A DNA stretch of 64,000 nucleotides. Origin: Rhodothermales bacterium (GTDB taxonomy: Bacteria > Bacteroidota > Rhodothermia > Rhodothermales > VXPQ01). Both the position numbers and the translations under genes were made by a program. The notes beneath the pieces are model-generated. The model did no database searches. It was not told the DNA's origin and was given only the letters and a program-made list of their open reading frames with translations. Shown here in pieces: positions 5,511-57,582 of the stretch. The stretch covers positions 1,207,400-1,271,399 of the forward strand of contig OZ244993.1 in NCBI GenBank assembly GCA_965223485.1, in the 5' to 3' direction. Position 1 is the first letter of the stretch. The number at the start of each line of letters is the position of its first letter.

Positions 5511-5599
5511 TGCAATTATTGACGAAATTGCGCGCGATGCAATTATCTGGTGCAATTATTGACGGAATTGCGCGCGATGCAATTATCTGGTGCAATTAT
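5511..5599. repeat. 40-bp tandem repeat, 2.2 copies (TGCAATTATTGACGRAATTGCGCGCGATGCAATTATCTGG)
   Basis: Copies at 5511-5550 and 5551-5590 differ at 1 nt; a third copy starts at 5591. The TGCAATTAT core recurs 5 times with alternating 27/13-nt spacing. Confidence 0.85.
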
Positions 5600-6052: not shown

Positions 6053-7309
6053 ATGCACAGGCGTACCATGTTATCCGGTTTGGCGCTGATCGCCGTTCTT
6101 GCGATGCCGGGGTGCGACAGTATGACCGAATCGGAATTCGAGCCGGGGCCGCTGGGTGCGGTCACGCTGGAGCAGGGCGAGGCCGTACAGATCCGTCTGC
6201 TGGCCTCGGTCACGGTTGCGCCGTCGCTGGGGGCCGTGTCCCGTCAGGGAGCCGAGTTCGCCGCCGAGGACCTCGGCCCCATCCATGGGCGCGAGGTGGA
6301 GCTGGGCGATCCCGTTGACACGAGCTGTTCGCCGGAGGGCGGCCGCGCGGGTGCGCTTGGCATCGTCGGCGACCCGCAGGTGGCGGGCGTCGTCGGAACA
6401 AACTGCTCGGCCGCGGCCGTGGCGGCGTCGCCCGTTATCAGCGACGCGGGCCTGGTCATGATTTCGCCGAGCAACACCTCGCCGCACCTCACCTCGAACC
6501 TGACCGGCAGCGCGAATGCCGATTATCACCCCGGTTACTTTCGCGTGTCGTCCAACGACCTCCACCAGGCGCGCGCCCTCTCGGACTTTGTCTACAACCA
6601 ACTGGAGCTGACGCGCGTGGCAACTGTTCACGACGGTGACCCGTACACCTCCGCCCTTGTGGAGGCGTTCGCCGACGCTTTCTCGGCCCTCGGCGGCGAA
6701 GTACCGGTCAGAGCCGAAATCGAGAAGGGCGAGACGGATATGACGGACGTTCTCGAGGAGTTCGCGGCCATTGGCCCGGACGCCATCTTTTTCCCGCTGT
6801 TCGTGACGGAGGGTTCGGCCTTCGCCGCGCAAGCGCGGACCTTCGACGGGCTTGAAGGGACAACCCTGATTTCCGCGGCGGCGCTGCTGGTCTCCGCGTT
6901 CCTCGGGACGCCGGAGTCGGAGGGGATCTACTTCGCCGGACCGGAATCGGACTTTCGCTCCAACGTCAACGAGCAGACGGAAAGGAGCGGGGAGCAGGTT
7001 CTCGCCGCGTACGAGGCCAGGCACGGCGGTTCTCCCCCGTCGCCGTATTGGGCGCACGCCTACGATGCGACCACCATCCTCCTCTCGGCCATCGCATCCG
7101 TTGCGGTGGAGGAGGGCGACAGGCTGCTCATAGACCGGGCGGCCCTGCGCGAGAAGGTGGGAGCAACCGCCATGAACGGCTTGGTCGGGGCAATATCCTG
7201 CGACGAGTTCGGCGACTGCGGCACGGGACGGATGAACATCTACCACCACATGGACACGAGCATCACCGACGTTTCCAAACTGCCGGTCGTCTACGTATAC
7301 AACCCCTGA
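6053..7309 (+). CDS. ABC transporter substrate-binding lipoprotein (branched-chain amino acid/LivK-like family)
   Basis: 418 aa with lipobox LAMPGCDS. The layout is type I periplasmic binding protein-like (VVGTNCSAAAVAASPVISDAGLVMISPSNTSP..YFRVSSND). Confidence 0.75.
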   Translation: MHRRTMLSGLALIAVLAMPGCDSMTESEFEPGPLGAVTLEQGEAVQIRLLASVTVAPSLGAVSRQGAEFAAEDLGPIHGREVELGDPVDTSCSPEGGRAGALGIVGDPQVAGVVGTNCSAAAVAASPVISDAGLVMISPSNTSPHLTSNLTGSANADYHPGYFRVSSNDLHQARALSDFVYNQLELTRVATVHDGDPYTSALVEAFADAFSALGGEVPVRAEIEKGETDMTDVLEEFAAIGPDAIFFPLFVTEGSAFAAQARTFDGLEGTTLISAAALLVSAFLGTPESEGIYFAGPESDFRSNVNEQTERSGEQVLAAYEARHGGSPPSPYWAHAYDATTILLSAIASVAVEEGDRLLIDRAALREKVGATAMNGLVGAISCDEFGDCGTGRMNIYHHMDTSITDVSKLPVVYVYNP

Positions 7310-7345
7310 GCCGGTCGGCTGCCGGTTTCCGTGGAAACACCCTCA

Positions 7346-7362
7346 ATGTTTGCGCGCAAACA
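7346..7362. repeat. palindrome-containing motif ATGTTTGCGCGCAAACA, copy 1 of 3
   Basis: The flanks also match the copy at 53892 (GAAACACSCTCAATGTTTGCGCGC.AACA.TAAG). The copy at 52385 matches in inverted orientation. Confidence 0.7.
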
Positions 7363-7366
7363 CTAA

Positions 7367-9527
<2,161 letters not shown>

Positions 9528-10445: not shown

Positions 10446-13400
10446 ATGGATGAATCACGCAGGCGCACCATCCGCAAATTCAATCCCGGCACGTTCCAGT
10501 CCGATGAGGAGATCATCAGGCAATTCGTGGTCAGGGAGCGCGAGCTTGGCGCCGTGCTCGATATTATCCGAAGAAACATCAATGCGTTTGTTTGCCAGCC
10601 TGTCCTGATCGCTGCGCCTCGCGGTCAGGGCAAGACCATGCTGCTGGCCCGGGTTGCGGCGGCGTTGAACACCGAGGCCGATCTCTCCAGGCGTCTTTTG
10701 CCGGTCCGGTTCACGGAGGAAAGTCACGAGATATTCAATCTTGAGGACTTCTGGCTCGAGACATTGTTTTACCTTGCGCGGGAGAGCGCCGAGCACGATT
10801 CCGAGCTCGCAAAGGAATTGCAAGAAGCGCGTGCCGATCTGGTCAGGCGGTGGGACGAGGAAGCGCTTGTCGATCACGCCCGCGCCACGGTTCTGGAAGC
10901 TGCGGACCGGTTGGGCAAAAAACTTGTCCTCATGGTCGAAAACATGCAGGACCTCTGCGAAAATGTGGACGACGATTTTGGCCAGCAACTTTGCGGGGCG
11001 CTGCAATCGGAATCGCAGATCATGCTGCTCGCCACCGCTACGAGCCGCTTCGGAGGGTTGAACGACGTGGAGCACCCGTTTTTCGAGTTGTTCCGAACTA
11101 TTGATCTGAAACCGCTGGATACGGAAGAATGCCGCCGCTTGTGGCAAGTGGTCAGCGGAGACGAAGTGAACAGGCGGGATATCAGGCCGCTTGAGATTCT
11201 GACCGGCGGCAGTCCTCGCCTTCTGGTCATCGTCGCCGGGTTTGCCCAGCACCGGTCTTTGAGCCAGTTGATGGAAGAGCTGGTGCAGTTGATCGACGAT
11301 CATACCGAGTATTTCCGCGGTCATCTGGAGGCGCTGGCCAAGACCGAACGCCGGGTGTATCTCGCGGCGATCGATCTTTGGCAGGCGTCAAGCACGGGCG
11401 AGATCGCGACGCGGGCCCGCGTGGACGTTCGGACGGTGTCGGCCCTGCTTGGCCGACTCGTCGACCGGGGCATGGTCCGTGTGGATGGGAGCGGCAAGAA
11501 GCGGCTTTACGCCGCTGCGGAACGTCTTTACAGTATCTACTACAAACTGCGCCGCGAACGAGACGAGGCGGCTGTTGTGAGCGGTCTGATCCATTTTATG
11601 GTTGCGTTTTACAGCGAAGAGGAAATGGCCGAGAGGGTTAAAAAGTTGATTGCAGAGGCGAAGCGATTTCCAGGTATCCGGAAGGGCATTGAACGGGCGA
11701 TTGCCGAAGCGCCGTACATCGGGAGCTTTTTCCCGGGTATTGCGCGGCCAAAGATGGATCGGGTGTTCGTCCTGGATACGGCGTGCGGCAACGAGCGCGT
11801 CGAACGATTGCTCGAAGAGATTGCCGTGATGTTCCAAAAGGCGGAAACGCACAAGAAAGCCGGAGATTTCGCGGCGGCGATTATGGTCTATCGCGAGTTG
11901 ATCATGCGATTCGGCGCCAGTGAAGACCCGGATTTGCAGATGCAGATCGCCCGGGCGTTGTCCGACAAGGGGGATGCGCAAAGGGAACTCGGCGATTTCG
12001 CAACGGCAATTGCGACGTACGAAGAACTGATCGAGCGTTTTGGCGACAGCGAAGCGCCGGAATGCCAGTTTGCGGTTGTTTTGGCGTTGTCCGACAAGGG
12101 GGATATACAGAGGGAGCTTGGCGATTATCCATCGGCGATTGCGACCTATGAAAACTTGATCGAGCGCTCTGGCGACAGCGAAGCGCCGGAATGCTTGTAT
12201 TCGGTTCCCTGGGCATTACTTCACAAGGGGAATATGCACAAGGAACTCGGCGATTTCGCATCGGCGATTGTGTCTTACGAAGCGTTGATCAAGCGCTTTG
12301 GCGCCAGCGATGCACCGGAAAGCCGGTTCCCGCTTGCTTGGGCGTTGTGTCAGAAGGGAGATATGCAAGAGCAACTCGGTGATTTGGAGGGTGCGATTGT
12401 GACCTATGATGAAGTGATTGCATGTTTTGGCGGCAGCGACGCTTCGGAACTTCAGGTGCGCGTAGCCTGGGCGCTGTCTCAAAAGGGAGATATCCACCAG
12501 GAACTTAACGATTTTGATGAGGCGCTTGCGGTTTACGATGAAGTGATCGAGCGCTTTGGCGGTAGCGATGTCCCGGAACTCCAGGCGCTGGTTGCCAGCG
12601 CGTTGTCCGGTAAGGGATATATATTCGGACATCCGTTCGGAGATGATGCCTTGGCGCTTGCGGCCTACGACGAGTTGATTATGCGTTTTGGCGACAGCGA
12701 TGCGCCGGATATTCAGGAGCGGATCGCCTGGGCCTTGCACCAAAAGGGGATTTTTCAAGGGCAGCTTGGGGATTTCATGTCGGCGCTGGTCGTCTATGAC
12801 AAGATGATCGCACGTTTTGGCGGCAGCGAATCGCTTGAGATCCAGGCTTTGGTTGCCTGGACCTTGTTCGAGAAGGGAGATGTCCAACGACAACTTGGAG
12901 ATTATCCATCGTCGATTGCTGCCTGCAATGAAATTGTCATGCGCTTTGGCGATAGTGGTGCACAGGATCTCCAGATGCCGGTTGTTTGCGCGTTGTTCGA
13001 TAAGGGTATGAGACAACTGGAGATGGGGCATGGGGAGGAAGCGCTGCGCACACGTGAGGAGTTTGCCCGGCGATCCGGATCCCTGACCGATTTTTCGAAG
13101 GCAGGCTGCGCACTGCGGGCAATATGGATGCGCCCGGGATCATTACCGATACAAGGCCATCCCGAGATTGCTGCGGATGTATTGCAGTTTGTGTATATGT
13201 TGTTCGTGCCCGGTGAAAGGACAATGGTGGCAATGATGCAGCACATTGTGCTTGATCTGATCGCAGTTGGCGTCCCGGCGCATGAACTTGTCGAGATATT
13301 GTCGAGCGACGCCATGAAGGCCAGCGCGTTGACGCCGCTTGTCATTGCTCTCCTCCAGTATGCTGGCGAAGCGGTTCGGGCGCCTGTGGAAGTCCTTGAA

Positions 13401-13553
13401 GTTGCGGCGGATATCCGGGAGCGGATTGAGGAAAGGATGGCGGGAGGCGTTGGCACTGATTTTCCGCTGTTTCGCGGAACCGGACTCATACCCGGCGTGG
13501 ACCTGAGCGATTCGGCTTCCCCGTCCGACCTCATGGAGGAGGATCGGGAATGA
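10446..13553 (+). CDS. STAND/Arch_ATPase-like NTPase with winged-helix segment, nine 43-aa helical (TPR-like) repeats and a C-terminal helical domain
   Basis: 1035 aa. FVVRERELG lead-in, Walker A APRGQGKT (aa 57-64), Walker-B-like KLVLMVEN (aa 159-166), and a wHTH-like segment (VSALLGRLVDRGMVRVDGSGKKRLY). Repeats start at aa 482, 525, 568, 611, 654, 697, 741, 784 and 827. Confidence 0.8.
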   Translation: MDESRRRTIRKFNPGTFQSDEEIIRQFVVRERELGAVLDIIRRNINAFVCQPVLIAAPRGQGKTMLLARVAAALNTEADLSRRLLPVRFTEESHEIFNLEDFWLETLFYLARESAEHDSELAKELQEARADLVRRWDEEALVDHARATVLEAADRLGKKLVLMVENMQDLCENVDDDFGQQLCGALQSESQIMLLATATSRFGGLNDVEHPFFELFRTIDLKPLDTEECRRLWQVVSGDEVNRRDIRPLEILTGGSPRLLVIVAGFAQHRSLSQLMEELVQLIDDHTEYFRGHLEALAKTERRVYLAAIDLWQASSTGEIATRARVDVRTVSALLGRLVDRGMVRVDGSGKKRLYAAAERLYSIYYKLRRERDEAAVVSGLIHFMVAFYSEEEMAERVKKLIAEAKRFPGIRKGIERAIAEAPYIGSFFPGIARPKMDRVFVLDTACGNERVERLLEEIAVMFQKAETHKKAGDFAAAIMVYRELIMRFGASEDPDLQMQIARALSDKGDAQRELGDFATAIATYEELIERFGDSEAPECQFAVVLALSDKGDIQRELGDYPSAIATYENLIERSGDSEAPECLYSVPWALLHKGNMHKELGDFASAIVSYEALIKRFGASDAPESRFPLAWALCQKGDMQEQLGDLEGAIVTYDEVIACFGGSDASELQVRVAWALSQKGDIHQELNDFDEALAVYDEVIERFGGSDVPELQALVASALSGKGYIFGHPFGDDALALAAYDELIMRFGDSDAPDIQERIAWALHQKGIFQGQLGDFMSALVVYDKMIARFGGSESLEIQALVAWTLFEKGDVQRQLGDYPSSIAACNEIVMRFGDSGAQDLQMPVVCALFDKGMRQLEMGHGEEALRTREEFARRSGSLTDFSKAGCALRAIWMRPGSLPIQGHPEIAADVLQFVYMLFVPGERTMVAMMQHIVLDLIAVGVPAHELVEILSSDAMKASALTPLVIALLQYAGEAVRAPVEVLEVAADIRERIEERMAGGVGTDFPLFRGTGLIPGVDLSDSASPSDLMEEDRE
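11853..13055 (+). repeat. intragenic array of ~129-bp (43-aa) repeats
   Basis: Unit consensus is Y(D/E)E(L/V)I.RFG.S(D/E)AP..Q..VA.AL..KG..Q..LGD...A.. The array lies inside the ATPase CDS. Confidence 0.85.
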
Positions 13554-15391: not shown

Positions 15392-17137
15392 ATGAGTGAG
15401 GTCCGTCAACTACGCTCCGTAAAGCGTTATCGTACTACCACCGAAGAAAAGGCCGCAGGGGCTACCTACACGCCTAAAGTCCTTGCCGATTTTGTTGCGC
15501 GGAAGGTTGTCCAGCTTGCCGGCGAACTGCCCACCCATCGCCGGCTCCGCGTTCTCGACCCTGCTATCGGCCATGGAGAACTGCTAATCAGCTTGCTCGA
15601 GGGCTTAGCCGGCCAGTCGAACCTGACCATCGAAGTGCATGGTTTCGAGACGAATCGCGAGGCGCTTGCTACCGCAACGGCGCGAATCGAGCGACAATTC
15701 CCGAACGCTTCGCTTCATTTCAGGCCAGACAACTTCCTCGAGTTCGTCCTAAAGCACTGCGGATACGGCGGTCAAAGCAACCTGTTCAATTCCGCCGCCC
15801 CCGAAACCTATGATCTGATTATTGCTAATCCCCCCTATGTCCGCACCCAGATCATGGGGGCCGCACAGGCGCAGCTTATGGCCAGACAGTTCGGTCTGTC
15901 CGGTCGCGTGGATATGTATTACGCCTTCATGCTGGGTATATCTCACGTACTCGAGCCCAAGGGCATTGCCGGGATCATCGTCTCCAACCGCTTCATGACC
16001 ACCAGGTCCGGGGCCGCTGTTCGGCAAGCCTTGCTGAAGCGTTTCGACATTCGGCATGTATGGGATTTGGGCGATACGAAGCTATTCGATGCGGCAGTGC
16101 TGCCCGCCGTTTTGCTCGTCGAGAACAAGAATGGCCGTACATCGAAGTCCCCGGCCTTCACGTCAATCTATCAAACCACCGACCCGGTGCGCCAACGCGC
16201 CACGGACCCGATCAGCGCCCTGACCGGAGAAGGCGTCGTCGAGATAGACGACGGGCGACGTTTCCATGTCCGGCATGGCAAGCTGGATACAAGCGGCACG
16301 TTCAATGGCGTTTGGCGGATTGCCACCGAAGCTGTCGATGCCTGGTTAGCCACAGTGGAAGCTCATAGTTTGGGCACGTTCCGTGACATCGGCAAAATCC
16401 GTGTCGGCGTCAAGACCTGCGCCGACAAGGTGTTCGTCCAAAACGACTGGAAGAGCATGTCTGAGGCTGACCGTCCCGAATTGCTCAAACCGCTCACAAC
16501 GCACCACATTGCCCGTCGCTTCAAGCCACTGATTGCGGAGAAGCCAACCCGAATTCTCTACCCGCACGAGGTTTCGCACGGCCGCCGTCGGGCCGTCGAT
16601 CTTGCGCAATATCCCCGCAGCAAGACCTATCTCGACACGCATCGCGCCACGCTCGAAGGCCGCCAATATGTTACCGAGGCAGGTCGCGAGTGGTACGAAA
16701 TCTGGGTGCCCCAGGACCCCGATGCCTGGCAGCGGCCCAAACTCGTTTTCCGGGACATTGCCGACGAACCCACGTTCTGGATCGATCTGGACGGATCCGT
16801 CGTCAACGGCGACTGTTACTGGCTCACCTGTCAGAATCCGGAACAGACCGACTTGTTATGGCTCGCAGCGGCCGTCGGTAATTCGACGTTCATTGAGCGA
16901 TTCTACGATTACCGCTTCCATAACAAGCTCTATGCGGGTCGCCGTCGCTTCATCACCCAGTATGTCGAGAAATTCCCGATCCCCGACCCCGAAACCTCTC
17001 TCGGCAGGAAGATTATCGCTCAGGCCAAGCGGATATACGAATGCATCTCGTTCCCGGATGTCGTCCATCTCCAAAAGGAACTGGACGGCATGGTTTGGGA
17101 GTCGTTCGGTTTAGTCGTCGAAGAAATCGGCGGGTAG
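15392..17137 (+). CDS. N6-adenine DNA methyltransferase (type II, gamma-class, Eco57I/TaqI-like)
   Basis: Motif I VLDPAIGHGELL, motif IV IIANPPYVRTQ. AGGGGAGAG precedes the ATG at 15392. Confidence 0.9.
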   Translation: MSEVRQLRSVKRYRTTTEEKAAGATYTPKVLADFVARKVVQLAGELPTHRRLRVLDPAIGHGELLISLLEGLAGQSNLTIEVHGFETNREALATATARIERQFPNASLHFRPDNFLEFVLKHCGYGGQSNLFNSAAPETYDLIIANPPYVRTQIMGAAQAQLMARQFGLSGRVDMYYAFMLGISHVLEPKGIAGIIVSNRFMTTRSGAAVRQALLKRFDIRHVWDLGDTKLFDAAVLPAVLLVENKNGRTSKSPAFTSIYQTTDPVRQRATDPISALTGEGVVEIDDGRRFHVRHGKLDTSGTFNGVWRIATEAVDAWLATVEAHSLGTFRDIGKIRVGVKTCADKVFVQNDWKSMSEADRPELLKPLTTHHIARRFKPLIAEKPTRILYPHEVSHGRRRAVDLAQYPRSKTYLDTHRATLEGRQYVTEAGREWYEIWVPQDPDAWQRPKLVFRDIADEPTFWIDLDGSVVNGDCYWLTCQNPEQTDLLWLAAAVGNSTFIERFYDYRFHNKLYAGRRRFITQYVEKFPIPDPETSLGRKIIAQAKRIYECISFPDVVHLQKELDGMVWESFGLVVEEIGG

Positions 17138-21509: not shown

Positions 21510-23768
21510 ATGTACCCTCCATTTCGTGGTTGCGGGTTCCAATCGATTCGCGCAGGCTGCCTTCGCGCCAGACAGCATAAGCGCCATACGGTTCTTCCTG
21601 CCTCCGGGATTGGCAGGCATGTGCTTGTTGGTCTTTTGTTGGCGGTTGCGCCATTTGTACACGGAAGGAGCTTTGGTCAGCCGGTAAGGGGCTGGCCGGT
21701 TAATACCAGTATCGGGCATAAGCATTGGGTCCTTTCGGTAGCCTTTTCGCCCGATAGCAGTATCGTGGCGTCCGCGTCCCGTGACGGAACCGTCAGGCTG
21801 TGGGATGTAGCTACGGCATCCAACACCGTAACGCTCCTGGGGCATACGGATTGGGTCCTTTCGGTAGCCTTTTCGCCCGATAGCAGTACCGTGGCCTCCG
21901 CATCCCGTGACGGAACCGTCAGGCTGTGGGATGTGGCTACGGGATCCAACGCCGCAACGCTCCCGGGGCATACGTCCTGGGTCAATTCGGTAGCCTTTTC
22001 GCCCGATGGCGGTACTCTGGCGTCCGCGTCCAGTGACGGAACCGTCAGGCTGTGGGATGCGGCTACGGGAGAGAGCACCGCAACGCTCCCGGGGCATACG
22101 TCCTGGGTCCTTTCGGTAGCCTTTTCGCCCGATGGCGGTACCGTGGCGTCCGCGTCCACTGACGGAACCGTCAGGCTGTGGGATGTGGCTACGGGGTCCG
22201 AGACCGCAACGCTCCCGGGGCATACGCATTCGGTCAGTTCGGTAGCCTTCTCGCTCGATGGCAATATCGTGGCGTCCGCGTCCTATGACGAAACCGTCAG
22301 GCTGTGGGATGTGGCTACTGGATCCAACACCGCAACGCTCTCGGGGCATAGGGATCGGGTCAATTCGGTAGCCTTTTCGCCCGATAGCAGCACCGTGGCG
22401 TCCGCGTCCGATGACGGAACGGTCAGGCTGTGGGATGTGGCTACGGAATCCAACACCGCAACGCTCCCGGGGCATACCGGGTTGGTCAATTCGGTAGCCT
22501 TTTCGCCCGATGGCAGTATCGTGGCGTCCGCGTCCCATGACAGAACCGTCAGGCTGTGGGATGTAATTTCAGGGAGTCCCACCTCTACGTTTGGACCCGG
22601 AGTCATACCCTTGGCGGTCGTTTATTCACCTGATGGAAGTACGCTGGCCTCGGGAACCGATGATCATACCGTCAGGCTGTGGGATGTGGCCACGGGATCC
22701 GAGACCGCAACGCTCCCGGGGCATACGTCCGGGGTTAATTCGGTAGCCTTTTCGCCCGATAGCAGTACCGTGGCGTCCGCATCCTATGACAGAACCGTCA
22801 GGCTGTGGGATGTGGCTACGGAATCCAACACCGCAACGCTCTTTGGGCATACGTCCGGGGTTCTTTCGGTAGCCTTTTCGCCCGATGGTAATACCCTGGC
22901 GTCCGCGTCCAGTGACAGAACCGTCAGGCTGTGGGATGTGGCTACTGAATCCGAGACCGCCACGCTATCGGGGCATACCGGGTGGGTCAGTTCGGTAGCC
23001 TTTTCGCCCGATAGCGGTACCGTGGCGTCCGCGTCCTATGACAGAACCGTCAGGCTGTGGGATGTGGCTACTGAATCCGAGACCGCAACGCTCTTTGGGC
23101 ATACCGGGAGTGTCAATTCGGTAGCCTTTTCTCCTGATGGCAGTATCGTGGCGTCCGCGTCCGATGACGGAACCGTCAGGCTGTGGGATGTGGCTACTGA
23201 ATCCAACACCGCAACGCTCTTTGGGCATACGTTTTGGGTCAATTCGGTAGCCTTTTCGCCCGATGGAAACATGCTGGCTTCGGGAGGCGACGACAGAACC
23301 GTCAGGCTGTGGGATGTGGCTACGGAATCCAACATCGCAACGCTATCGGGGCATACCGGGTGGGTCAATTCGGTAGCCTTTTCGCCCGATGGAAACATGC
23401 TGGCGTCAGGGGCATGGGATTGTTTCATTAATCTGTGGGACGTATCAGTCGTAACAGGGCTTGCGCTCGATGACGAAGGGGAGGTTCCAACGGCCTTCCG
23501 CCTGCACGGCAACTATCCCAATCCGTTCAATCCGTCAACGCGCGTGGTATTCGACCTGCCGTCGGCAGCCGAAGTGACGGTGCATGTCTTTGACGTATTG
23601 GGAAGAAACGTGATGGTCACAGGCCCCGTGTCCGTATCGGGCGGTTGGGACCGTTCCCTTGAAGTGCATGCATCCTCGTTGCCCTCGGGCGTATACGTCT
23701 ATCAGGTAAGGGCGCATACGGGTTCGGACATGCTTGTCCGGTCAGGGCGCATGATCCTCGCGAAATGA
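21510..23768 (+). CDS. secreted WD40-repeat protein (14 blades) with T9SS C-terminal sorting domain
   Basis: 14 units of GH..WV.SVAFSPD....ASAS.D.TVRLWDV. The C-terminus LHGNYPNPFNPSTRVVFDLP..SGVYVYQVRA is a T9SS tail. The start is uncertain; a signal-like LVGLLLAVAPFVHG lies near 21620. Confidence 0.85.
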   Translation: MYPPFRGCGFQSIRAGCLRARQHKRHTVLPASGIGRHVLVGLLLAVAPFVHGRSFGQPVRGWPVNTSIGHKHWVLSVAFSPDSSIVASASRDGTVRLWDVATASNTVTLLGHTDWVLSVAFSPDSSTVASASRDGTVRLWDVATGSNAATLPGHTSWVNSVAFSPDGGTLASASSDGTVRLWDAATGESTATLPGHTSWVLSVAFSPDGGTVASASTDGTVRLWDVATGSETATLPGHTHSVSSVAFSLDGNIVASASYDETVRLWDVATGSNTATLSGHRDRVNSVAFSPDSSTVASASDDGTVRLWDVATESNTATLPGHTGLVNSVAFSPDGSIVASASHDRTVRLWDVISGSPTSTFGPGVIPLAVVYSPDGSTLASGTDDHTVRLWDVATGSETATLPGHTSGVNSVAFSPDSSTVASASYDRTVRLWDVATESNTATLFGHTSGVLSVAFSPDGNTLASASSDRTVRLWDVATESETATLSGHTGWVSSVAFSPDSGTVASASYDRTVRLWDVATESETATLFGHTGSVNSVAFSPDGSIVASASDDGTVRLWDVATESNTATLFGHTFWVNSVAFSPDGNMLASGGDDRTVRLWDVATESNIATLSGHTGWVNSVAFSPDGNMLASGAWDCFINLWDVSVVTGLALDDEGEVPTAFRLHGNYPNPFNPSTRVVFDLPSAAEVTVHVFDVLGRNVMVTGPVSVSGGWDRSLEVHASSLPSGVYVYQVRAHTGSDMLVRSGRMILAK
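21711..23430 (+). repeat. intragenic 126-bp (42-aa) WD40 repeat array with high nucleotide identity between units
   Basis: Strings such as ACCGTCAGGCTGTGGGATGTGGCTAC and TCGGTAGCCTTTTCGCCCGAT recur with a 126-nt period. Confidence 0.9.
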
Positions 23769-50389: not shown

Positions 50390-51987
50390 TGTACGCCTTT
50401 CTGATCGAACTGCGACTCTATTACCGGAACAGGATGGCCCTGATCTACGGCTATCTTTTCCCGCTGATCTTTCTGGTTGCCTTCCTTGTGTTGTACCGGC
50501 ACGAACCGGCGCCGCTCGTGAACCACATGGGGGAACTCCTTACCGTGACGGCCCTTGGCGGGGCCTGCTTCGGCCTGCCCACCTCCATGGTGGGCGAGCG
50601 GGAGCGGGGAGTCTGGCGCCGGTACCGGGCGACGCCCGTTTCCACGTGGCGCCTGGTGCTGACGACGGTTGCGGCCCGGTACCTGGTCCTGCTTTCCGCC
50701 GCGCTTCTTCAGATTGTGCCGGCCATGCTTCTTGGCATGCCGTTTCCTGAGCATATTGCCGGGCTGTGGGTCGCCTTCACGTTCGTGTCTTTCGCCTTTC
50801 TGGGGCTGGGCCTTGTCATCGCCATGCTCGCCGACACGGTGCCCGCCGTACAGGCGCTGGGGCAGTCCATTTTCCTGCCGATGCTGATCATTGGCGGGGT
50901 GGCGGTGCGTCTCGAAAGCCTGCCCGAATGGGCGCAGCACCTGTCCGCCTTTTTTCCCGGTCGCTATGCGGTCGAGGCGATACAGGTTACCGTGAACGGA
51001 AGCGGACTGGGCGCCGCGGGCTTCAGCTTGCTGGCCCTCCTTCTGATTGGCGCCGCCGGCTGCCTTGCCTCGGCGAAGATGTTTCGATGGGATACGCGGG
51101 AGCGAGGCGGTACGCGGCGCGGCAAGGTATGGGCGGGCGCTGCCCTCGCGGCATGGGTGCTGGTCGGCGTGCTGGCGGAAGGCACGGGCCGCGCTCTGCC
51201 GCATGGACGATTGCCTGCCGACGGCGTATCGTCGCTGACCGATGCGCTTCGTGCCCCTGGTGCAGAAACGGACAACCCCTCTAACGTGTATGGGACGGAA
51301 GCGGATTCGGTTACGTTCGCGGAGAACGTTGCGGATTCTGCCGGTGTCGGGGCCTTGTCGGCGGATTCGGCGCCGGAACCGTCAGACCCGCAAAGCGACG
51401 CAGATACTCCGGCCGGGGAAACCGCCGATGCCGTATCCGAAGAGGTTGTCGAGGCGCCACCGCCTCCCCCGCCCATCGACTACCCCGATTCCTGGGAAGA
51501 AGTGACGATGGAGGACATCGACCGGGACATCCGGTTCGATGCGCTTCCCTACGATCAGGGCCTGGAGGCCCCGGTGGCCGCGCTGGACGAGCCCGTGTAT
51601 CCGGATATCGAGGATACGATACAATGCGTCCTCGACGATCTGGAGGTATGGCCGCCGGCCTGGACGGCGGACCCTGTGCAGCGGGCGCGCAATGTGCTGT
51701 TCGTGGCGGCGGTCCCGGACATGTACCAGATGAGCGGGATCGAGCGGTGGGTACCGCACGCCGTATTCCAGCATCTGGCGAATGCGCATCCCGAAGAGGA
51801 ATTGATCAAGGTGCTCTACTGGATCGCCGCAAATCCCTACGAGGGGGAAGTTTTCGCCGCAAGTCGACTTACGGATATGTGCCTGCGGCTCGGCGGCCCC
51901 GACGACACTGCGATGCTACAGCAGCGGACCGGGTGGTACGCGGCCAAGCTACTGGGCCGGATCACCGGGCATATTGAGGTGAGGTAG
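50386..51987 (+). CDS. ABC-2 type permease fused to a ~280-aa C-terminal domain of unknown function
   Basis: ATGA start/stop overlap with the ATPase gene. About 6 TM segments (aa 1-250), then an acidic low-complexity linker and a conserved-looking tail (..VLYWIAANPYEGEVF..GRITGHIEVR). Confidence 0.75.
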   Translation: MMYAFLIELRLYYRNRMALIYGYLFPLIFLVAFLVLYRHEPAPLVNHMGELLTVTALGGACFGLPTSMVGERERGVWRRYRATPVSTWRLVLTTVAARYLVLLSAALLQIVPAMLLGMPFPEHIAGLWVAFTFVSFAFLGLGLVIAMLADTVPAVQALGQSIFLPMLIIGGVAVRLESLPEWAQHLSAFFPGRYAVEAIQVTVNGSGLGAAGFSLLALLLIGAAGCLASAKMFRWDTRERGGTRRGKVWAGAALAAWVLVGVLAEGTGRALPHGRLPADGVSSLTDALRAPGAETDNPSNVYGTEADSVTFAENVADSAGVGALSADSAPEPSDPQSDADTPAGETADAVSEEVVEAPPPPPPIDYPDSWEEVTMEDIDRDIRFDALPYDQGLEAPVAALDEPVYPDIEDTIQCVLDDLEVWPPAWTADPVQRARNVLFVAAVPDMYQMSGIERWVPHAVFQHLANAHPEEELIKVLYWIAANPYEGEVFAASRLTDMCLRLGGPDDTAMLQQRTGWYAAKLLGRITGHIEVR

Positions 51988-52250
51988 GCAATTTTGTCCG
52001 GCGCGTTTCGTTTATTTAAGCCTGTTCCGCCTCATTTTTTCCGGCACGCTCCATCTGATGCACCTCCCAAATGAGCACACCGTTTTCTTTTTGGGGACTA
52101 CAGGTCCGCCTGCTATCCGTTCGGAGGGCCCTGCTTTTGGCCTTGGCCGGGTTGTTGGCCGCGCCTGGCGTGACCTATGCCGAGACGCATGGCGTGCCTG
52201 TACTGGCCAACCGCCTTAAGGGGCCTGACGTTATAGTGGAGCCCGGTGAT
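51745..52250 (+). repeat. left copy of a diverged tandem duplication (3' end of the permease gene + intergenic region + 5' end of the protease gene)
   Basis: Aligns with 54219-55015 at roughly 90-95% identity, apart from a 291-bp in-frame deletion equivalent to 54640-54930. Confidence 0.9.
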
Positions 52251-52277
52251 TGTAAAACGACAGCAAGTTGGCACTGA
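52071..52277 (+). pseudogene. truncated duplicate of the S8 protease 5' end, running into the element's TIR
   Basis: MSTPFSFWGLQVRLL..GVTYAETHGVPVLANRL..VEPGD, then TIR-encoded residues and a stop. Confidence 0.85.
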
Positions 52278-52356
52278 AACGACACGAATTTGGCACTAAA
52301 TAACTGAGAGATCACAGTTAGCCTTCTAAATGGCCAGGGTTATGCCGTTTTGTCAC
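52251..52356 (+). repeat. left terminal inverted repeat
   Basis: TGTAAAACGACAGCAAGTTGGCACTGAAACGACACGAATTTGGCACTAAATAACTGAG..TATGCCGTTTTGTCAC. Confidence 0.85.
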
Positions 52357-52384
52357 GCTGCCCGGCCTCATTGAAGCCCCTTAG

Positions 52385-52402
52385 ATGTTTGCACGCAAAC
52401 AT
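52385..52402. repeat. palindrome motif ATGTTTGCACGCAAACAT, copy 2 (inverted flank orientation)
   Basis: With the copy at 53892 it forms an inner inverted-repeat pair around the transposase and small gene. Confidence 0.7.
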
Positions 52403-52483
52403 CGGCTGCACGTATCTGGTGCTCGATGCGGAGTTCAGTAATTTTCACTCCGACTATCTGATAAAGGGCAAGTAGCGGGTACG

Positions 52484-52517
52484 AAAAAAGCCCCGCCAGA
52501 AACGAATCCGGCGGGGC
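52484..52517 (-). terminator. rho-independent terminator after the small membrane protein gene
   Basis: On the minus strand: stem GCCCCGCC / GGCGGGGC (8 bp) followed by TTTTTT, ~45 nt after the stop at 52563. Confidence 0.6.
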
Positions 52518-52562
52518 CTTCCGCATGACACGGCTGAACGGTACGAGAACGCCCTGTCGATG

Positions 52563-52943
52563 CTACTCCTGGCTTCGTTTCTCACGCCGACGCTGCACCT
52601 TGCATTGGATATACCCGATTGAGCCCAGCGCCACCGACCCGTAAACGTTCCACAGCGGAGGCACGTCCATAACGAGCCCGACGGTCATAAAGTACTGCGT
52701 CATCTTTATACGCTCCGAGCCGGTTTGCCTGAAGCATCCGGGCCGCTCGGCCTCGCCCTCCGAAATAACCGGCGCATCAAGCTCCGTCGGCACCACGGCA
52801 GGTAGAGGAAGTTTTTCCAGGGCGAGCACCTCTACCGCCGCAGGCTTTTCGGGCGTCTTGTCGTCATCCGTGGCTGCGGCAGGCGCCGCCACGGACAAGG
52901 CGAGGATGAAAAGGAGTGTGTGTTTCATCGTGGTTTGCCTCAC
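52563..52943 (-). CDS. small secreted/membrane-anchored hypothetical protein (passenger gene of the element)
   Basis: Signal peptide MKHTLLFILALSVAAPAAA, a C-terminal hydrophobic segment and a basic tail. Confidence 0.55.
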   Translation of the reverse strand: MRQTTMKHTLLFILALSVAAPAAATDDDKTPEKPAAVEVLALEKLPLPAVVPTELDAPVISEGEAERPGCFRQTGSERIKMTQYFMTVGLVMDVPPLWNVYGSVALGSIGYIQCKVQRRREKRSQE

Positions 52944-53044
52944 AACGTTTTGTTAATCACAACGGGCGACGCATCCCGGGGGTCAGGGGCAGGACTTCCC
53001 TATATTAGTACATCCTAAATAAAAAAGTCAAGGACGACCCTGAT

Positions 53045-53804
53045 TTATAAAATAAGGTCATTGTACATGAGGCGTTTGCCATCGAGCCCTAGGAGGATTT
53101 TCGCCATCTTGTCAAGCGTTGACAGCTTGCGCAGGTTATGGCGCCCGGCGAACTCGTTGATGTAGCGGTGCAGGTGCTTGCGGCTCATGTGGTGGTAGGC
53201 GCCTTTGTACGCCCGCTTGAGCAGGGCCCAGAAGCTCTCTATGCCGTTGGTGTGGGCGTCTCCCTTCACGTACTGGTACGCGGAGTGGTTTGTAGCGGCC
53301 CGCCAGCGGCTTGTAGGAAACGTTATCGTCGGTATAGAGCGTAGCGCCCGGTTTTGCCCGACGAGAAACAAAAGCGGAAAAGTGCAGCGCATCGACCTCT
53401 ACAGGCCCGCGAAAAATGTCCACATCGCCGGCGAAAAACTCACGCAGGCGCTGCAAGAAAAACCACGCGGATTTTTGCGTCATCCCGAGCGCCTTCGCGA
53501 GCATAGGCGAGGATATGCCTTTGGCCCGCGTGGAGGCCAGGTAGATACCGATGGCCCATTGCCGCAAGGATAGATTGCTGTCCTCCATTACCGTGCCCTT
53601 GCGCACGGAGAAGTATCCGCGGCAGTCGCGGCAGCGGTACGGCATCGAGCGGTGCGAGGGTGTCCGGGAGAAATTCATCGAGCCGCACGTAGGGCACGCC
53701 GGCCCAACGGGCCAGCGCACACTCTCCATCCACCGCCGGGAAAACTCCTCGTCCCGAAACAAGCGGAACAAAGCTAAAATGGTTACTCCTCCTGTGGCAA
53801 CCAT
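53045..53804 (-). pseudogene. IS1595-family (ISXO2-like) transposase, internally deleted and frameshifted
   Basis: The N-terminal zinc ribbon CPTCGS..YRCRDCRGYFSVRKGT and HTH lie in ORF 53136..53804. The C-terminal DDE end ([40 protein letters not shown]) lies in a different frame (53045..53392). The central catalytic part is largely missing. Confidence 0.8.
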
Positions 53805-53891
53805 TGTATATAATTCCCATTAAAATAGGGGATGGTCCTGGCTTTGCGAACAAGCGGAGTATATCCCTTATAGGGATCCGAAACACGCTCA

Positions 53892-53909
53892 ATGTTTGCG
53901 CGCCAACAT
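53892..53909. repeat. palindrome motif ATGTTTGCGCGCCAACAT, copy 3
   Basis: Its flanks match the copy at 7346. Confidence 0.7.
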
Positions 53910-54110
53910 AAGATGCCGGTGTGCGCGCCAGACCCTTGAACGGCTTATGCGGTGTAGCTATGCGCGAGACGCTCTACGCCGACGTCGATCTGACCGACGC
54001 AGTCATGGATATGGTAAAGCAGGGTCATTATTCGGGCGTCACGGTCGCGATTTTCGGGCCGACTCATCCGAGCAATCCGAAGCCGGTCGATCACTACCTG
54101 CCACACCGGA

Positions 54111-54218
54111 GTGACAAAACGGCATAGCATTGGTCATTTGCAAGGCTAACTGTTTTCCGCCTCAGTTATTTAGTGCCAGGCCCGTGTCGTTTTAGTGCCA
54201 ATTTGCTGTCGTTTTACA
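54111..54218 (-). repeat. right terminal inverted repeat
   Basis: Its reverse complement aligns with 52251-52356. Confidence 0.85.
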
Positions 54219-55015
54219 CGGTGGGTGCCGCACGCCGTATTCCAGCATCTGGCGAATGCGCATCCCGAAGAGGAATTGATCAAGGTGCTCTACTGGATCG
54301 CCGCAAATCCCCACGAGGGGGAAGTTTTCGCCGCAAGTCGACTTACGGACCTGTGCCTGCAGATCGGCGGTCCCGACGACATTTTAATGCTCCAGCAGCG
54401 GACCGGGTGGTACGCGGCCAAGCTACTGGGCCGGATCACCGGGCATATTGAGGTGAGGTAGGCAATTTTGTCTGGCGCGTTTCGTTTATTTAAGCCTGTT
54501 CCGCCTCATTTTTTCCGGCACGCTCCATCTCATGCACCTCCCAAATGAGCACACCGTTTTCTTTTTGGGGACTACAGGCCCGCCTGCTTTACGTTCGGAG
54601 GGCCCTGCTTTTGGCCCTGACCGGGTTCCTGGCCGCGCCTTTGGCCCTGGCCTAGGAGCAGCCGGCCTATGAGCCCCACGTCGTCGTCGTGCAGTTTGAG
54701 CCGGGCATTGTCATCGGGGAAGGAGTTGCCAAGGCAGGCTTGCAGGCTTTTGACCGCATGGCTTCCGCATTCGGCGTGCACACGATCGAGCGCGTGTTTC
54801 CGTTTCTGGATCACGTGCAGCCCACGCCCGAAACCGCGCGGAATCTCGCAGCGCTTCGCCGCACCTACTATGTCCGGTACAGCGCCGACGATGATCCCGG
54901 AGACGTAGCGAAGGCCCTGATGGACGTGCCTGGCGTGACCTATGCCGAGACGCATGCCGTGCCCGTACTGGCCAGCCGCCTTATGGGGTCTGACGTTATA
55001 GTGGAGCCCGATGAT
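54219..55015 (+). repeat. right copy of the tandem duplication
   Basis: It starts exactly at the element's right end with a duplicate of permease codons (ORF 54195..54461 ends ..GRITGHIEVR*), then the intergenic region and the protease 5' end. Confidence 0.9.
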
Positions 55016-57481
55016 TCTTTATTCAGTGCCCAGACGTATCTCAGGCATATGCGTCTGCCCGAAGCCTGGGACATCGTCAAGGGAGAAGACGGCGCCCCGC
55101 CGGTGGTTATCGCCATAACGGATTTGGGCGGAGATTGGCGACACGAGGATCTTCTTGCGAATGTTTGGACCAATGCGAATGAGATTCCAGGCAACGGTAT
55201 AGACGACGATAACAACGGTTTCATTGACGATGTGCACGGGGTGAATCTACTCAATAGAGATGACGCCGACAACGATCCGTATACTCCGGGGGGCATCCCG
55301 CATGGCACACACGTCGCGGGCGCAGCCAGTGCCGTGACCGACAATAGCGCCGGTGTTGCCGGAGCGGCGTGGAATGCCCAGCTCATGCATATTAGTGGCC
55401 TCTACGCAGGCATCCTGTATGCCGCCGCCAACGGCGCCGACATCATAAATGCAAGTTGGGGTACGATAGGGTTCATCGGGGGGGGTAGAACTGAAGCGCA
55501 AGTCCTGGACCTCGCAACGGAGATGGGCGCCCTTGTGGTAACGTCAGCAGGCAATGACGGCAGGAATATCGATGACTTCGCATACTATCCTTCCGGTCAT
55601 CCTCGCGTTCTTACTGTCGGCGCCACGGCTAAAGATTCACGCATAAAGGCGGGATTTTCGAATTACGGCAAGGGAGTCGATGTCTTTGCCCCTGGCGTAG
55701 ACATCATTACTACAGTACCGGACGGCGAATACACGCTTTCCGTAGACGGCACGTCATACGCATCTCCTCTGGTAAGTGGTGTGGCCGCATTGGTGAAGAC
55801 CCGATATCCGGACATTTCGCCGGATGCATTGCGGGAGCAAATTCGTCTTTCGAGCGAGAATATGGATGCGGAGAATCCGGGGTATGCAGGACTGCTGGGA
55901 CGCGGGTATGTCAATGCCGAGGCGGCCCTGCAAACGCCTGTGCTTCCAGCCATTCGTGTTAAGCGGTCGTCATGGACCGATGCCGCCGGCGACCGCCAGA
56001 TTGCTTCAGGAGAGGAGGTAACGATCACGGCTACGGTAGTCAATTACCTGGCCGACGCCCGGCAGCTGAGCGTAGGTCTGACGGCGGCCGAATCGTACCC
56101 GTATATAGATATAACAACGGCCGAGCAAACGGTAGGCCGCCTGGCCCGTGGCGATTCCACCGAGGTTACGTTTCGGTTCACGGTAGCCCCCGATGCGCCC
56201 GTAAATCGCAGGGTGCGATTCTATACCCGTATTCGGGACGGAGCATTCGTAGACGAGCCCGACCAATTCGCTTTTGGCATAAACAGGAGGCTCGATATCG
56301 TGCACGAGGCGCTCAGCGCACTATATGTCTCCACCGGCGGCGACAACTGGACAAACAATTCCGGCTGGGACATCACCAGGGTGCCTGCGCCGAGCGAATT
56401 GTACAACTGGTTTGGGATATCCGTGGCACAGGGCTGGGTAACTTTTCTCCGATTGGACAACAACAACCTTTCCGGTACGCTACCGACCGAACTGGGCAAT
56501 CTCGCGCAGTTGCAAGAGCTGGATCTGTGGCGCAATACCCTGACGGGGTCGATCCCGACCGAGCTGGGCAACCTCTCGCAATTGCAACGGCTGAATCTGT
56601 ACGACAATTCACTTTCCGGGGCGATTCCCGGCGAATTGGGCAATCTCTCGAAATTGCAACAGCTGGATCTGACGGGTAATTCGCTTACCGGGGCGATCCC
56701 CGGCGAATTCGGCAATCTCTCCGAACTGCAAGAGCTGAATCTGTCGCGCAACGCCTTGACGGGCAGGCTGCCGAGGAGTTTTATGCAGTTGGCGAATCTG
56801 CAGCAACTGTCTTTTGGCGGCCAGGACCTCTGCGCGCCAGCGGATGATGCGTTCCAGGCATGGCTCGGCAGCATCCTGATAACAAGTGGTCCTACCTGTA
56901 GTGGAATCCATTTTGCAGACAACGTGCCCGACCAATCTTTTGCGCACGCGCAGCCCATTGCCCCACTCGTCTTGCCCGAAGCTATTGGGGGCGCATCGCC
57001 GATTGACTATACGTTGACGCCCGCACTGCCGGAAGCATTGGCCTTTGACAAAGCGATGCGCACTATCAGCGGGACGCCGACGGTAGTCACGCCGGCCACA
57101 CCCTATACGTACAAGGCCACCGATGCGGACGGATCCACTGACAGCCTGACCTTTAGCATCGAGGTGATTTTTCCGGTCAGTGCTGAGGATGAATCGTTGC
57201 CGCAAGCGTTAGTTTTGCACGGCAACTATCCCAATCCCTTCCGGCATTCCACACGTCTGATGATTGATCTTCCGTGGCCCGCCCGTGTGACGGTTGAGGT
57301 GATGGATGTGGTGGGCCGTCGTGTATTTACAGTCCCTTCGGTTGATTTGGCGCCCGGATGGCAACGCGGCATAGACCTGAGTGGAGCTTCGCTGTCCTCG
57401 GGGCTATACCTGTACCGGGTGCATGCGTCATCGCCACAAGGCAGTGCCGTGCACGTGGGGCGCTTCGTGCGTATCCGATAA
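54689..57481 (+). CDS. S8 subtilisin-like serine protease with LRR array, Ig-like domain and T9SS C-terminal domain. The signal-peptide exon (54545-54652) is cut off by an in-frame TAG at 54653
   Basis: Triad contexts AITDLGGDW, HGTHVAGAAS and GTSYASPLVSGVAAL. Plant-type LRRs L.G.IP.ELGNLS.LQ.L.L. T9SS tail LHGNYPNPFRHSTRLMIDLP..SGLYLYRVHA. Confidence 0.8.
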   Translation: MQFEPGIVIGEGVAKAGLQAFDRMASAFGVHTIERVFPFLDHVQPTPETARNLAALRRTYYVRYSADDDPGDVAKALMDVPGVTYAETHAVPVLASRLMGSDVIVEPDDSLFSAQTYLRHMRLPEAWDIVKGEDGAPPVVIAITDLGGDWRHEDLLANVWTNANEIPGNGIDDDNNGFIDDVHGVNLLNRDDADNDPYTPGGIPHGTHVAGAASAVTDNSAGVAGAAWNAQLMHISGLYAGILYAAANGADIINASWGTIGFIGGGRTEAQVLDLATEMGALVVTSAGNDGRNIDDFAYYPSGHPRVLTVGATAKDSRIKAGFSNYGKGVDVFAPGVDIITTVPDGEYTLSVDGTSYASPLVSGVAALVKTRYPDISPDALREQIRLSSENMDAENPGYAGLLGRGYVNAEAALQTPVLPAIRVKRSSWTDAAGDRQIASGEEVTITATVVNYLADARQLSVGLTAAESYPYIDITTAEQTVGRLARGDSTEVTFRFTVAPDAPVNRRVRFYTRIRDGAFVDEPDQFAFGINRRLDIVHEALSALYVSTGGDNWTNNSGWDITRVPAPSELYNWFGISVAQGWVTFLRLDNNNLSGTLPTELGNLAQLQELDLWRNTLTGSIPTELGNLSQLQRLNLYDNSLSGAIPGELGNLSKLQQLDLTGNSLTGAIPGEFGNLSELQELNLSRNALTGRLPRSFMQLANLQQLSFGGQDLCAPADDAFQAWLGSILITSGPTCSGIHFADNVPDQSFAHAQPIAPLVLPEAIGGASPIDYTLTPALPEALAFDKAMRTISGTPTVVTPATPYTYKATDADGSTDSLTFSIEVIFPVSAEDESLPQALVLHGNYPNPFRHSTRLMIDLPWPARVTVEVMDVVGRRVFTVPSVDLAPGWQRGIDLSGASLSSGLYLYRVHASSPQGSAVHVGRFVRIR

Positions 57482-57511: not shown

Positions 57512-57582
57512 TACGCGGCCAAACTGCGGGGCCGGATCACCGGGCATATTGAGGTGGAATAGGATTCCTCGTCCGGTGCGTT
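57512..57582 (+). repeat. third copy of the ~71-nt permease 3'-end/terminus segment
   Basis: TACGCGGCCAARCT.C.GGGCCGGATCACCGGGCATATTGAGGTG..TAGG....GTCCGG.GCGTT also occurs at 51937-52007 and 54411-54481. Confidence 0.8.

Follow-up and report, generated by a model that had tools for sequence, protein, structure and literature searches.

The DNA considered here is a 64,000-nucleotide stretch of a Rhodothermales bacterium genome (contig OZ244993.1; hereafter the window), and its subject is the interval at positions 52251-54218, which begins with TGT, closes with ACA, is bounded by long inverted arms, and encloses a small orphan gene and a dead transposase gene. The initial annotation left two readings of this interval: an IS1595-like unit nested in a non-autonomous element with long terminal inverted repeats (TIRs), or a single element with compound ends. 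The long inverted ends do not define one transposon, and the interval is a patchwork. It is a mosaic of two inverted, independently diverged copies of a short lineage-specific repeat (the units), a dead IS1595-family insertion sequence (IS) and an orphan gene, and the units are probably of the mini-Mu type.

Two members of a dispersed repeat family

From left to right, the interval opens with the A-arm of the left unit (52251-52357, plus strand), an R-like end whose TGT tip faces outward and which carries tandem 22-nt sites at 52255-52275 and 52277-52297; its likeness to the A-arms of other units extends up to ..GTGACAAAACGGCATA (as reverse complement). It is followed by a 27-nt linker, the 'd' module (52358-52384, containing ..GGGGCTTCAATGAGGCCGG.. 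as reverse complement), and by the first copy of a palindrome, ATGTTTGCACGCAAACAT (52385-52402), both without a strand. Beyond the orphan gene module (52486-52975) and the decayed IS1595-family element (53045-53818), both on the minus strand, lies the right unit, which consists of a B-arm, or L-like end (53819-53891, plus strand), the second palindrome copy, ATGTTTGCGCGCCAACAT (53892-53909, again unstranded), and the A-arm half (53910-54218, plus strand), which closes with the ACA tip and has its tandem 22-nt sites on the minus strand at 54172-54192 and 54194-54214. This half also contains a 55-codon open reading frame (ORF; 53960-54127), codons 4-49 of which (53969-54106) form a relic of a Mu-like head-maturation protease. 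What had been described as an inner inverted pair is actually two copies of one self-complementary palindrome, one per unit.

The ~107-bp inverted ends first recorded as ~85% identical are borne out, with 83.5% identity between left and right arms over the terminal 107 nt; an outer stretch of 58 nt (52251-52308/54161-54218) is 90% complementary and an inner stretch of 43 nt (52314-52356/54111-54153) is 86% complementary. The TGT/ACA tips and the two tandem 22-nt units per end hold as well: the 64-kb window has four matches to AAACGACA-N6-TGGCACT, one tandem pair at each end, where shuffled sequence is expected to give 0.07, and two matches to the 25-nt tip, for which 0.00 are expected.

These arms are not peculiar to the locus. 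A scan of a genome collection for the tandem units recovered four ends in the Rhodothermales metagenome-assembled genome OZ252093.1, which enclose units of 347-430 bp, and further copies lie on contigs that encode the small ORF of the unit in several ENA assemblies. Overall, at least four complete or megabase-scale assemblies contribute unit copies, at roughly ten distinct loci. The anatomy of the unit, taken from an alignment of 16 copies and parts, follows a fixed order over 350-430 bp: B-end, palindrome, 55-codon protease-relic ORF, A-end. The B-end reads TGTAAAACGACAG.AA.TTGGCATT and holds one 22-nt site; a perfect palindrome, TGTTTGCGCGCAAACA, lies ~70 nt inward of it, with the 46-codon protease relic ~60 nt further on; and the A-end holds two tandem 22-nt sites followed by the ACA tip, the ratio of two A-end sites to one B-end site being kept in all full copies. 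The TIR similarity within units reaches ~25-70 nt. The units are small (<600 bp), have TIRs and no transposase, and exist in many copies, as expected of miniature inverted-repeat transposable elements (MITEs), and a comparison with Rfam gave nothing close to its thresholds.

Against a hidden Markov model of the unit, the right copy in the window covers positions 16-427 and the left copy positions 268-427. The right copy is complete except for the IS1595 element in its B-arm, and its own B-arm and palindrome lie inside the interval, while the left copy is a short variant made of the 107-nt A-arm, 27 nt and the palindrome, in which the 'd' linker stands in place of the protease-relic segment; this linker also adjoins palindromes at two other loci (L026 and L029). 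With copies in other genomes the window arms share up to 89.9% identity, and because they are less alike mutually than to these foreign copies, they are separate members of the family and did not evolve together as the ends of one element. A single element with compound ends therefore does not fit the interval, since its arms belong to two members of a 350-430-bp family and the right member keeps its own B-arm and palindrome.

Enclosed modules and duplicated flanks

The transposase gene inside the interval is split on the minus strand into an N-terminal part (53136-53804), which carries the IS1595 zinc ribbon PF12760 (30 bits, Pfam cut-off 25.4) and matches positions 2-71 of NF033547, and a C-terminal DDE tail in another frame (53045-53392), which matches PF12762 (56 bits) and positions 159-215 of NF033547. 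Compared with an intact relative of 312 aa, the remnant has 58-60% identity and lacks ~145 nt of its middle; the dead IS1595-type transposase seen in the initial annotation, with its zinc ribbon, its DDE tail out of frame and its middle missing, is thus confirmed by the Pfam and NCBIfam matches and the size of the loss. One end of the IS is preserved, GGGAATTATATA at 53807-53818 (minus strand), identical to the ends of intact relatives, and no second end is present in the window within two mismatches, the distal end being lost. Intact relatives have TIRs of the form GGGAATTATATA../GGGGATTATATA.. together with 8-bp duplications, as in the members at L007 2948-4223 (perfect 22-bp TIRs GGGGATTATATAGATAGGTGAA, duplication TACAGTAT) and L003 10864-15925 (TIRs GGGAATTATATA.., 8-bp duplication ATTTTTTT). 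For the window IS, only one flank of such a duplication remains, ATTAAAAT, and this is the native B-arm octamer of the right unit (53819-53826), which the IS1595 end abuts; the first 22 nt of the B-arm (TGTAAAACGACAGCAAGTTGGC) are absent. Because the B-arm starts at this octamer directly against the IS1595 end, the IS must have inserted into the B-arm.

The nested element shares with the ISNwi1-like subgroup of the IS1595 family the N-terminal zinc ribbon and the DDE_Tnp_IS1595 domain, and its end GGGAATTATATA agrees with the subgroup consensus ggnnatTAT. Its relatives have 8-bp duplications, and some carry passenger genes; unlike live members, the window copy is dead, with a frameshift, the ~145-nt internal deletion and one end gone. 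That the long inverted repeats could simply be the ordinary ends of this enclosed IS deserves almost no credence, even though the sole transposase gene inside the interval is of the IS1595 type: the intact members of these populations have GGGRATTATATA.. ends flanked by 8-bp duplications, the units recur many times without any IS1595, and one real IS1595 end sits inside the interval at 53807-53818. Since the dead transposase is followed by its own GGGAATTATATA end, as in the intact relatives, the long arms are not IS1595 ends. The nested reading of the initial annotation thus stands in so far as the IS1595 element is a separate entity with its own ends, and falls in so far as its host is not one element.

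The octamer ATTAAAAT is also the break point of a solo B-end in OZ252093.1 (L007 2119-2148), beside another IS1595 transposase fragment, and it may mark an AT-rich site that IS1595 prefers within a GC-rich genome. The intact member in L003, an element of 5,062 bp with a 312-aa transposase, is strain-specific; it occupies a position equivalent to 52069-52071 of the window, and its passengers are an EcoRI-type methylase, a GmrSD/HNH nuclease and three small ORFs. Neither the window nor any of the other contigs covering the site has it.

The orphan gene between the two units encodes a 121-aa protein (52563-52928, minus strand; the longest ORF starts from a GTG at 52943). It had been described as a small membrane-protein gene with its own terminator, and the terminator is indeed strong, a hairpin at 52478-52516 of -32.8 kcal/mol (z = -4.8) followed by a U run, which reaches ~8 nt past the stretch shared with other loci; of the membrane character there is only a signal-like N-terminal segment, and the product has no match in the family scans. 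The module is seen elsewhere beside integrase or IS3 genes, without unit arms. The exact protein is encoded on six public contigs, five from two ENA metagenome assemblies and one a short Logan fragment.

The flanks, which had been thought to come from different loci, belong to one locus that has been duplicated in tandem, and represent its two copies. The left copy of the duplicated segment (T; 51745-52250, plus strand) extends from the 3' end of an ABC-2 permease gene across a spacer into the 5' part of an S8 peptidase gene, has lost 291 nt internally, and stops exactly at the left tip with the S8 peptidase fragment; the right copy (54219-55016, plus strand) begins exactly at the right tip, with the permease 3' homology, and runs into an intact S8 peptidase gene (54689-57481). 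The two copies are 96% and 91% identical over two aligned blocks, and since both end precisely at the tips, the element (U) sits at the joint of a tandem duplication, T-U-T. In a sister lineage, permease, T and peptidase are uninterrupted at both break points. Two models, at present only proposed, would reproduce this geometry: Campbell-type integration of a circle carrying the element and T, or transposition using ends on sister chromosomes. A third copy of the last ~50 nt of the permease gene, 82% identical, lies downstream of the S8 peptidase gene at 57512-57582, so the locus has been duplicated more than once.

Five contigs from two samples span the locus, one of them a 3.39-Mb circular contig, and all have the same block at the same position, at ~98% identity and collinear with the window; a sixth contig is a 902-bp fragment identical to the window. 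The block is fixed in the population. This collinearity bears on the idea that the 107-bp inverted repeats flank an invertible segment, or inverton, that switches the enclosed gene. Inverted repeats around a small gene, as found here, are a common arrangement in Bacteroidota-like genomes, but an inverton is scarcely credible at this locus given that the orientation is the same in five of five spanning contigs, that the repeats are only 83.5% identical and that no invertase gene lies nearby.

A non-autonomous composite transposon, with two inverted R-like ends used together by a Mu/Tn7-type transposase and all the contents (small gene, IS1595 and inner B-arm) as cargo, is rather improbable. Two R ends with two sites each are enough for a Mu transpososome in vitro (PMC3562280), which is the arrangement of the two tandem pairs at 52251-54218, and a comparable pair with A-ends outward encloses a TonB-like gene in OZ252093.1 (L011/L010). 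Such a transposon is opposed by the lack of a target duplication between flanks that are themselves the two copies of T, and by arms whose mutual identity of 83.5% is below that of either arm to foreign copies. The block is moreover found at this locus only, the six contigs with the exact small protein comprising five with the same neighbourhood and one fragment, and the inner region has no match in the other loci compared.

Mu-like features of the units

The interior of the unit points to a Mu-like phage. All close homologues of the 55-codon ORF are small (39 clusters, 49-95 aa, frameshift variants included), and its variable columns are distributed 15/14/22 over the three codon positions. 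The ORF matches PHROG 976, the head maturation protease, with E = 8.6e-5, and a profile built from 36 copies and run against 1.8 billion representatives led to proteins of 170-852 aa, matched at residues ~68-113. Of these longer homologues, three of eight scanned exceed the Pfam cut-off for Mu-like_Pro, and three of three scanned match PHROG 976, with E values down to 7.5e-104; in hhalign the relic profile was aligned at 97% probability (E = 8.4e-11, 51% identity over 47 columns). By tblastn the relic is present in every unit, including the right copy in the window (53969-54106, E = 2.5e-10), where it reads, as elsewhere, from the one-site end towards the two-site end. The phage relatives of the protease include phages annotated with Mu-type genes.

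A candidate for the machinery comes from L040, a unit-rich locus of a related genome, which contains a decayed MuA homologue (PHROG 310, E = 6.6e-43). Its N-terminus is HTH_Tnp_Mu_1, it shares 36% identity with the phage HS6 transposase (E = 1.8e-59), the gene order of that phage being Mu-like, and its nearest phage relatives all have Mu-type gene sets. The early suggestion that the ends resemble those of Tn7/Mu-type or IS21-type elements is therefore supported on its Mu side, by the protease relic and the L040 homologue, and no Tn7 or IS21 machinery was found.

The ends of Mu itself, L and R, are non-equivalent, contain several MuA sites and terminate in the dinucleotide CA, and MuA-type enzymes cut the target 5 bp apart (PMC3562280). 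Compared with these ends (sites L1-L3 and R1-R3) and with the mini-Mu elements built from them, the units share the terminal TG..CA and several putative sites of ~22 bp, one at the B-end and two contiguous ones at the A-end, in the manner of L1 versus R1-R2; inside them, a piece of a Mu-type head-protease gene points from the L-like towards the R-like end; and, like mini-Mu, they have no transposase in cis, with a MuA homologue present in a related genome. They differ from Mu in that no copy has a 5-bp target duplication and in that their sites have no sequence similarity to those of Mu, and from mini-Mu in being only 350-430 bp long and multi-copy, which is MITE-like, and in being natural repeats, whereas mini-Mu elements are laboratory constructs.

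On the reading that we favor, the units would be natural miniature derivatives of a Mu-like transposable prophage, each reduced to one L-like and one R-like end with remnants of what lay between. A MuA-type DDE transposase would have spread them in trans, binding the 22-nt sites and cleaving at the terminal CA. The IS1595-family element that inserted at ATTAAAAT in the right B-arm has since lost its far end and ~145 nt of the transposase gene, and the present composite would no longer move.

Several observations weigh against this account. No target duplication of 0-8 bp is present at any of six tip pairs, where the initial annotation had called for a search, nor do these pairs have the cross-wise flank pattern of replicative inversion. 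The searches turned up no element that combines these tips with an intact transposase, and the autonomous copies also sought from the outset did not appear; in JGI metagenomes the tips gave chance matches only, in AT-rich coding DNA, and in viral contigs, plasmids and phage records they gave none. The pooled ratio of nonsynonymous to synonymous polymorphism (pN/pS) of the unit ORF is 0.44, a value that agrees neither with unconstrained decay nor with a plainly constrained sequence. At least five different modules border the palindrome, in either orientation, and many copies are split exactly there, with 0.5-8 kb of cargo between the half made of B-arm and palindrome and the half made of palindrome and A-arm; a mini-Mu origin does not predict this. 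The consistent absence of target duplications and the cargo exchange bounded by palindromes are the standing puzzles. The six tip pairs also show no target consensus, and in the search for an insertion polymorphism that would reveal an empty site, related contig pairs proved collinear.

Among known mobile elements, the units resemble bacterial MITEs (Correia, RUP, the Tn3-derived TIMEs) in being small, TIR-ended and non- or pseudo-coding, and in occurring as many diverged copies, mostly just outside genes, in one lineage; they differ in having none of the target duplications of a parent IS that those MITEs carry, in their unequal ends, and in an internal palindrome at which cargo of up to 8 kb is joined. 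With Tn7-like elements (TnsB sites) and IS21 they share the TGT/ACA tips and repeated subterminal sites of ~22 bp that differ between ends, but the 5-bp duplications of Tn7 and the 4-8-bp duplications of IS21 are absent at the unit tips, no tnsA/B/C or tniQ genes were found in the loci around copies, and no IstB-type ATPase (istA/istB) lies beside any copy. The L040 transposase is closest to phage MuA (E = 1.8e-59, as above) as opposed to 28-bit matches to TnsB structures.

Other candidate partners were examined and rejected. In L026 a unit tip is followed by an IS481 gene, which is merely adjacent, since intact IS481 copies have other inverted repeats (TGTGATCTCTCAG../..GGTTTACACA) and 6-bp duplications (ACTAGC and GTTAGA). 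The 'g' module beside some arms is the 3' end and right inverted repeat of an IS3-family element, and this repeat is unrelated to the tips. A 749-aa gene between arm halves in L015, considered as a transposase, encodes a WD40 protein, and a 516-aa rve protein in the strain variant L004 is cut short and has no unit ends nearby.

Palindrome joints and the nature of the family

The palindrome is self-complementary over 16-18 bp and, when extended, forms a 28-bp motif of an 11-6-11-like kind. Besides the two copies in the interval, a third, perfect copy lies at 7347-7362, giving three matches in the window against 0.02 expected; among viral contigs there are two matches, both without modules of the family. 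The palindrome may be a copy of an operator or enhancer that is also an end point for deletions and cargo exchange. A rival proposal is that it is a site-specific recombination site (dif/pdif-like or resolvase-like, with a symmetric core) and that a recombinase shuffles modules at it; such shuffling, in place of transposition, would explain the cargo exchange and the unmatched flanks. This is a minority view, although one with several points in its favor: the palindrome is a universal joint for its neighbouring modules in both orientations, cargo is enclosed by two palindromes and sometimes by inverted 'c' modules, the extended 28-bp motif has the 11-6-11-like form, and the tips have no target duplication. 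It is weakened by the finding that no recombinase is consistently linked to the palindrome in the loci read, and by the conserved TGT/ACA tips, the TIRs and the sharp outer boundaries at unrelated loci, which suggest that end-based movement also took place; repeated operator-like palindromes of an ancestral prophage, combined with ordinary deletion, would produce the same joints.

The third palindrome belongs to a second mosaic of the same repeats in the window, at 7333-7870, between a gene end at 7309 and a katG-like ORF at 7944. It consists of 14 nt of B-arm, the perfect palindrome, a 'c' module and a degenerate piece resembling palindrome and B-arm, and it includes a relic of the 3' end of an IS3-family element at 7780-7854. 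At L028 1613-10356, an 8.2-kb segment with a gene for a 2,596-aa Ig-like/adhesin-type protein (2,615 aa in L027) separates a B-arm and its palindrome from a palindrome and its A-arm, with inverted 45-nt 'c' modules at both sides, and the next downstream gene is a 76%-identical paralogue. In OZ252093.1 (L007 4955-7054), an RVT_1 gene (365 aa) and a 319-aa partner without a family match lie between two units; the pair may be a reverse transcriptase system of the defence type. In L004 (13400-20366), an island beside an ABC ATPase gene contains a SEC-C protein, a truncated rve transposase, ParB-like genes and an SNF2 helicase, and the 5' end of the ATPase gene is present there as a 72-nt, 93%-identical direct repeat (13400-13471 and 16108-16179).

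The window holds two further classes of repeat. Tandem arrays at 21588-23418 and 11821-13032 (126-nt repeats in 12 copies and 129-nt repeats in 8-9 copies, 64-90% identity) are presumably coding repeats, and at 5511-5590 there are two adjoining 40-nt copies, 98% identical, each with the repeated motif TGCAATTAT.

For the clade as a whole, a broader and more tentative picture can be drawn, for which we would claim no great likelihood: bacteria of the Rhodothermales type might harbor natural mini-Mu MITEs, derived from a transposable prophage and consisting of an L-like end, an operator- or enhancer-like palindrome and an R-like end, that are amplified by the MuA-type transposase of the phage without target duplication, take up or swap as much as 8 kb of cargo at the palindrome, and seed tandem duplications such as T-U-T. 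They would then be a phage-parasitizing or phage-derived kind of non-autonomous element that integrates in an unusual way. None of the ten best matches of a full-text literature search joined 'Mu-like' with 'miniature inverted-repeat', and we know of no paper on MITE-like repeats from Mu-like phage ends; such repeats seem not to have been described. For annotation, the locus illustrates that inverted repeats around a dead transposase can be two copies of a dispersed repeat, with the transposase coming from a third, unrelated IS. If the units are driven by a phage enzyme of the MuA type, they would be non-autonomous passengers of a phage replication machinery.

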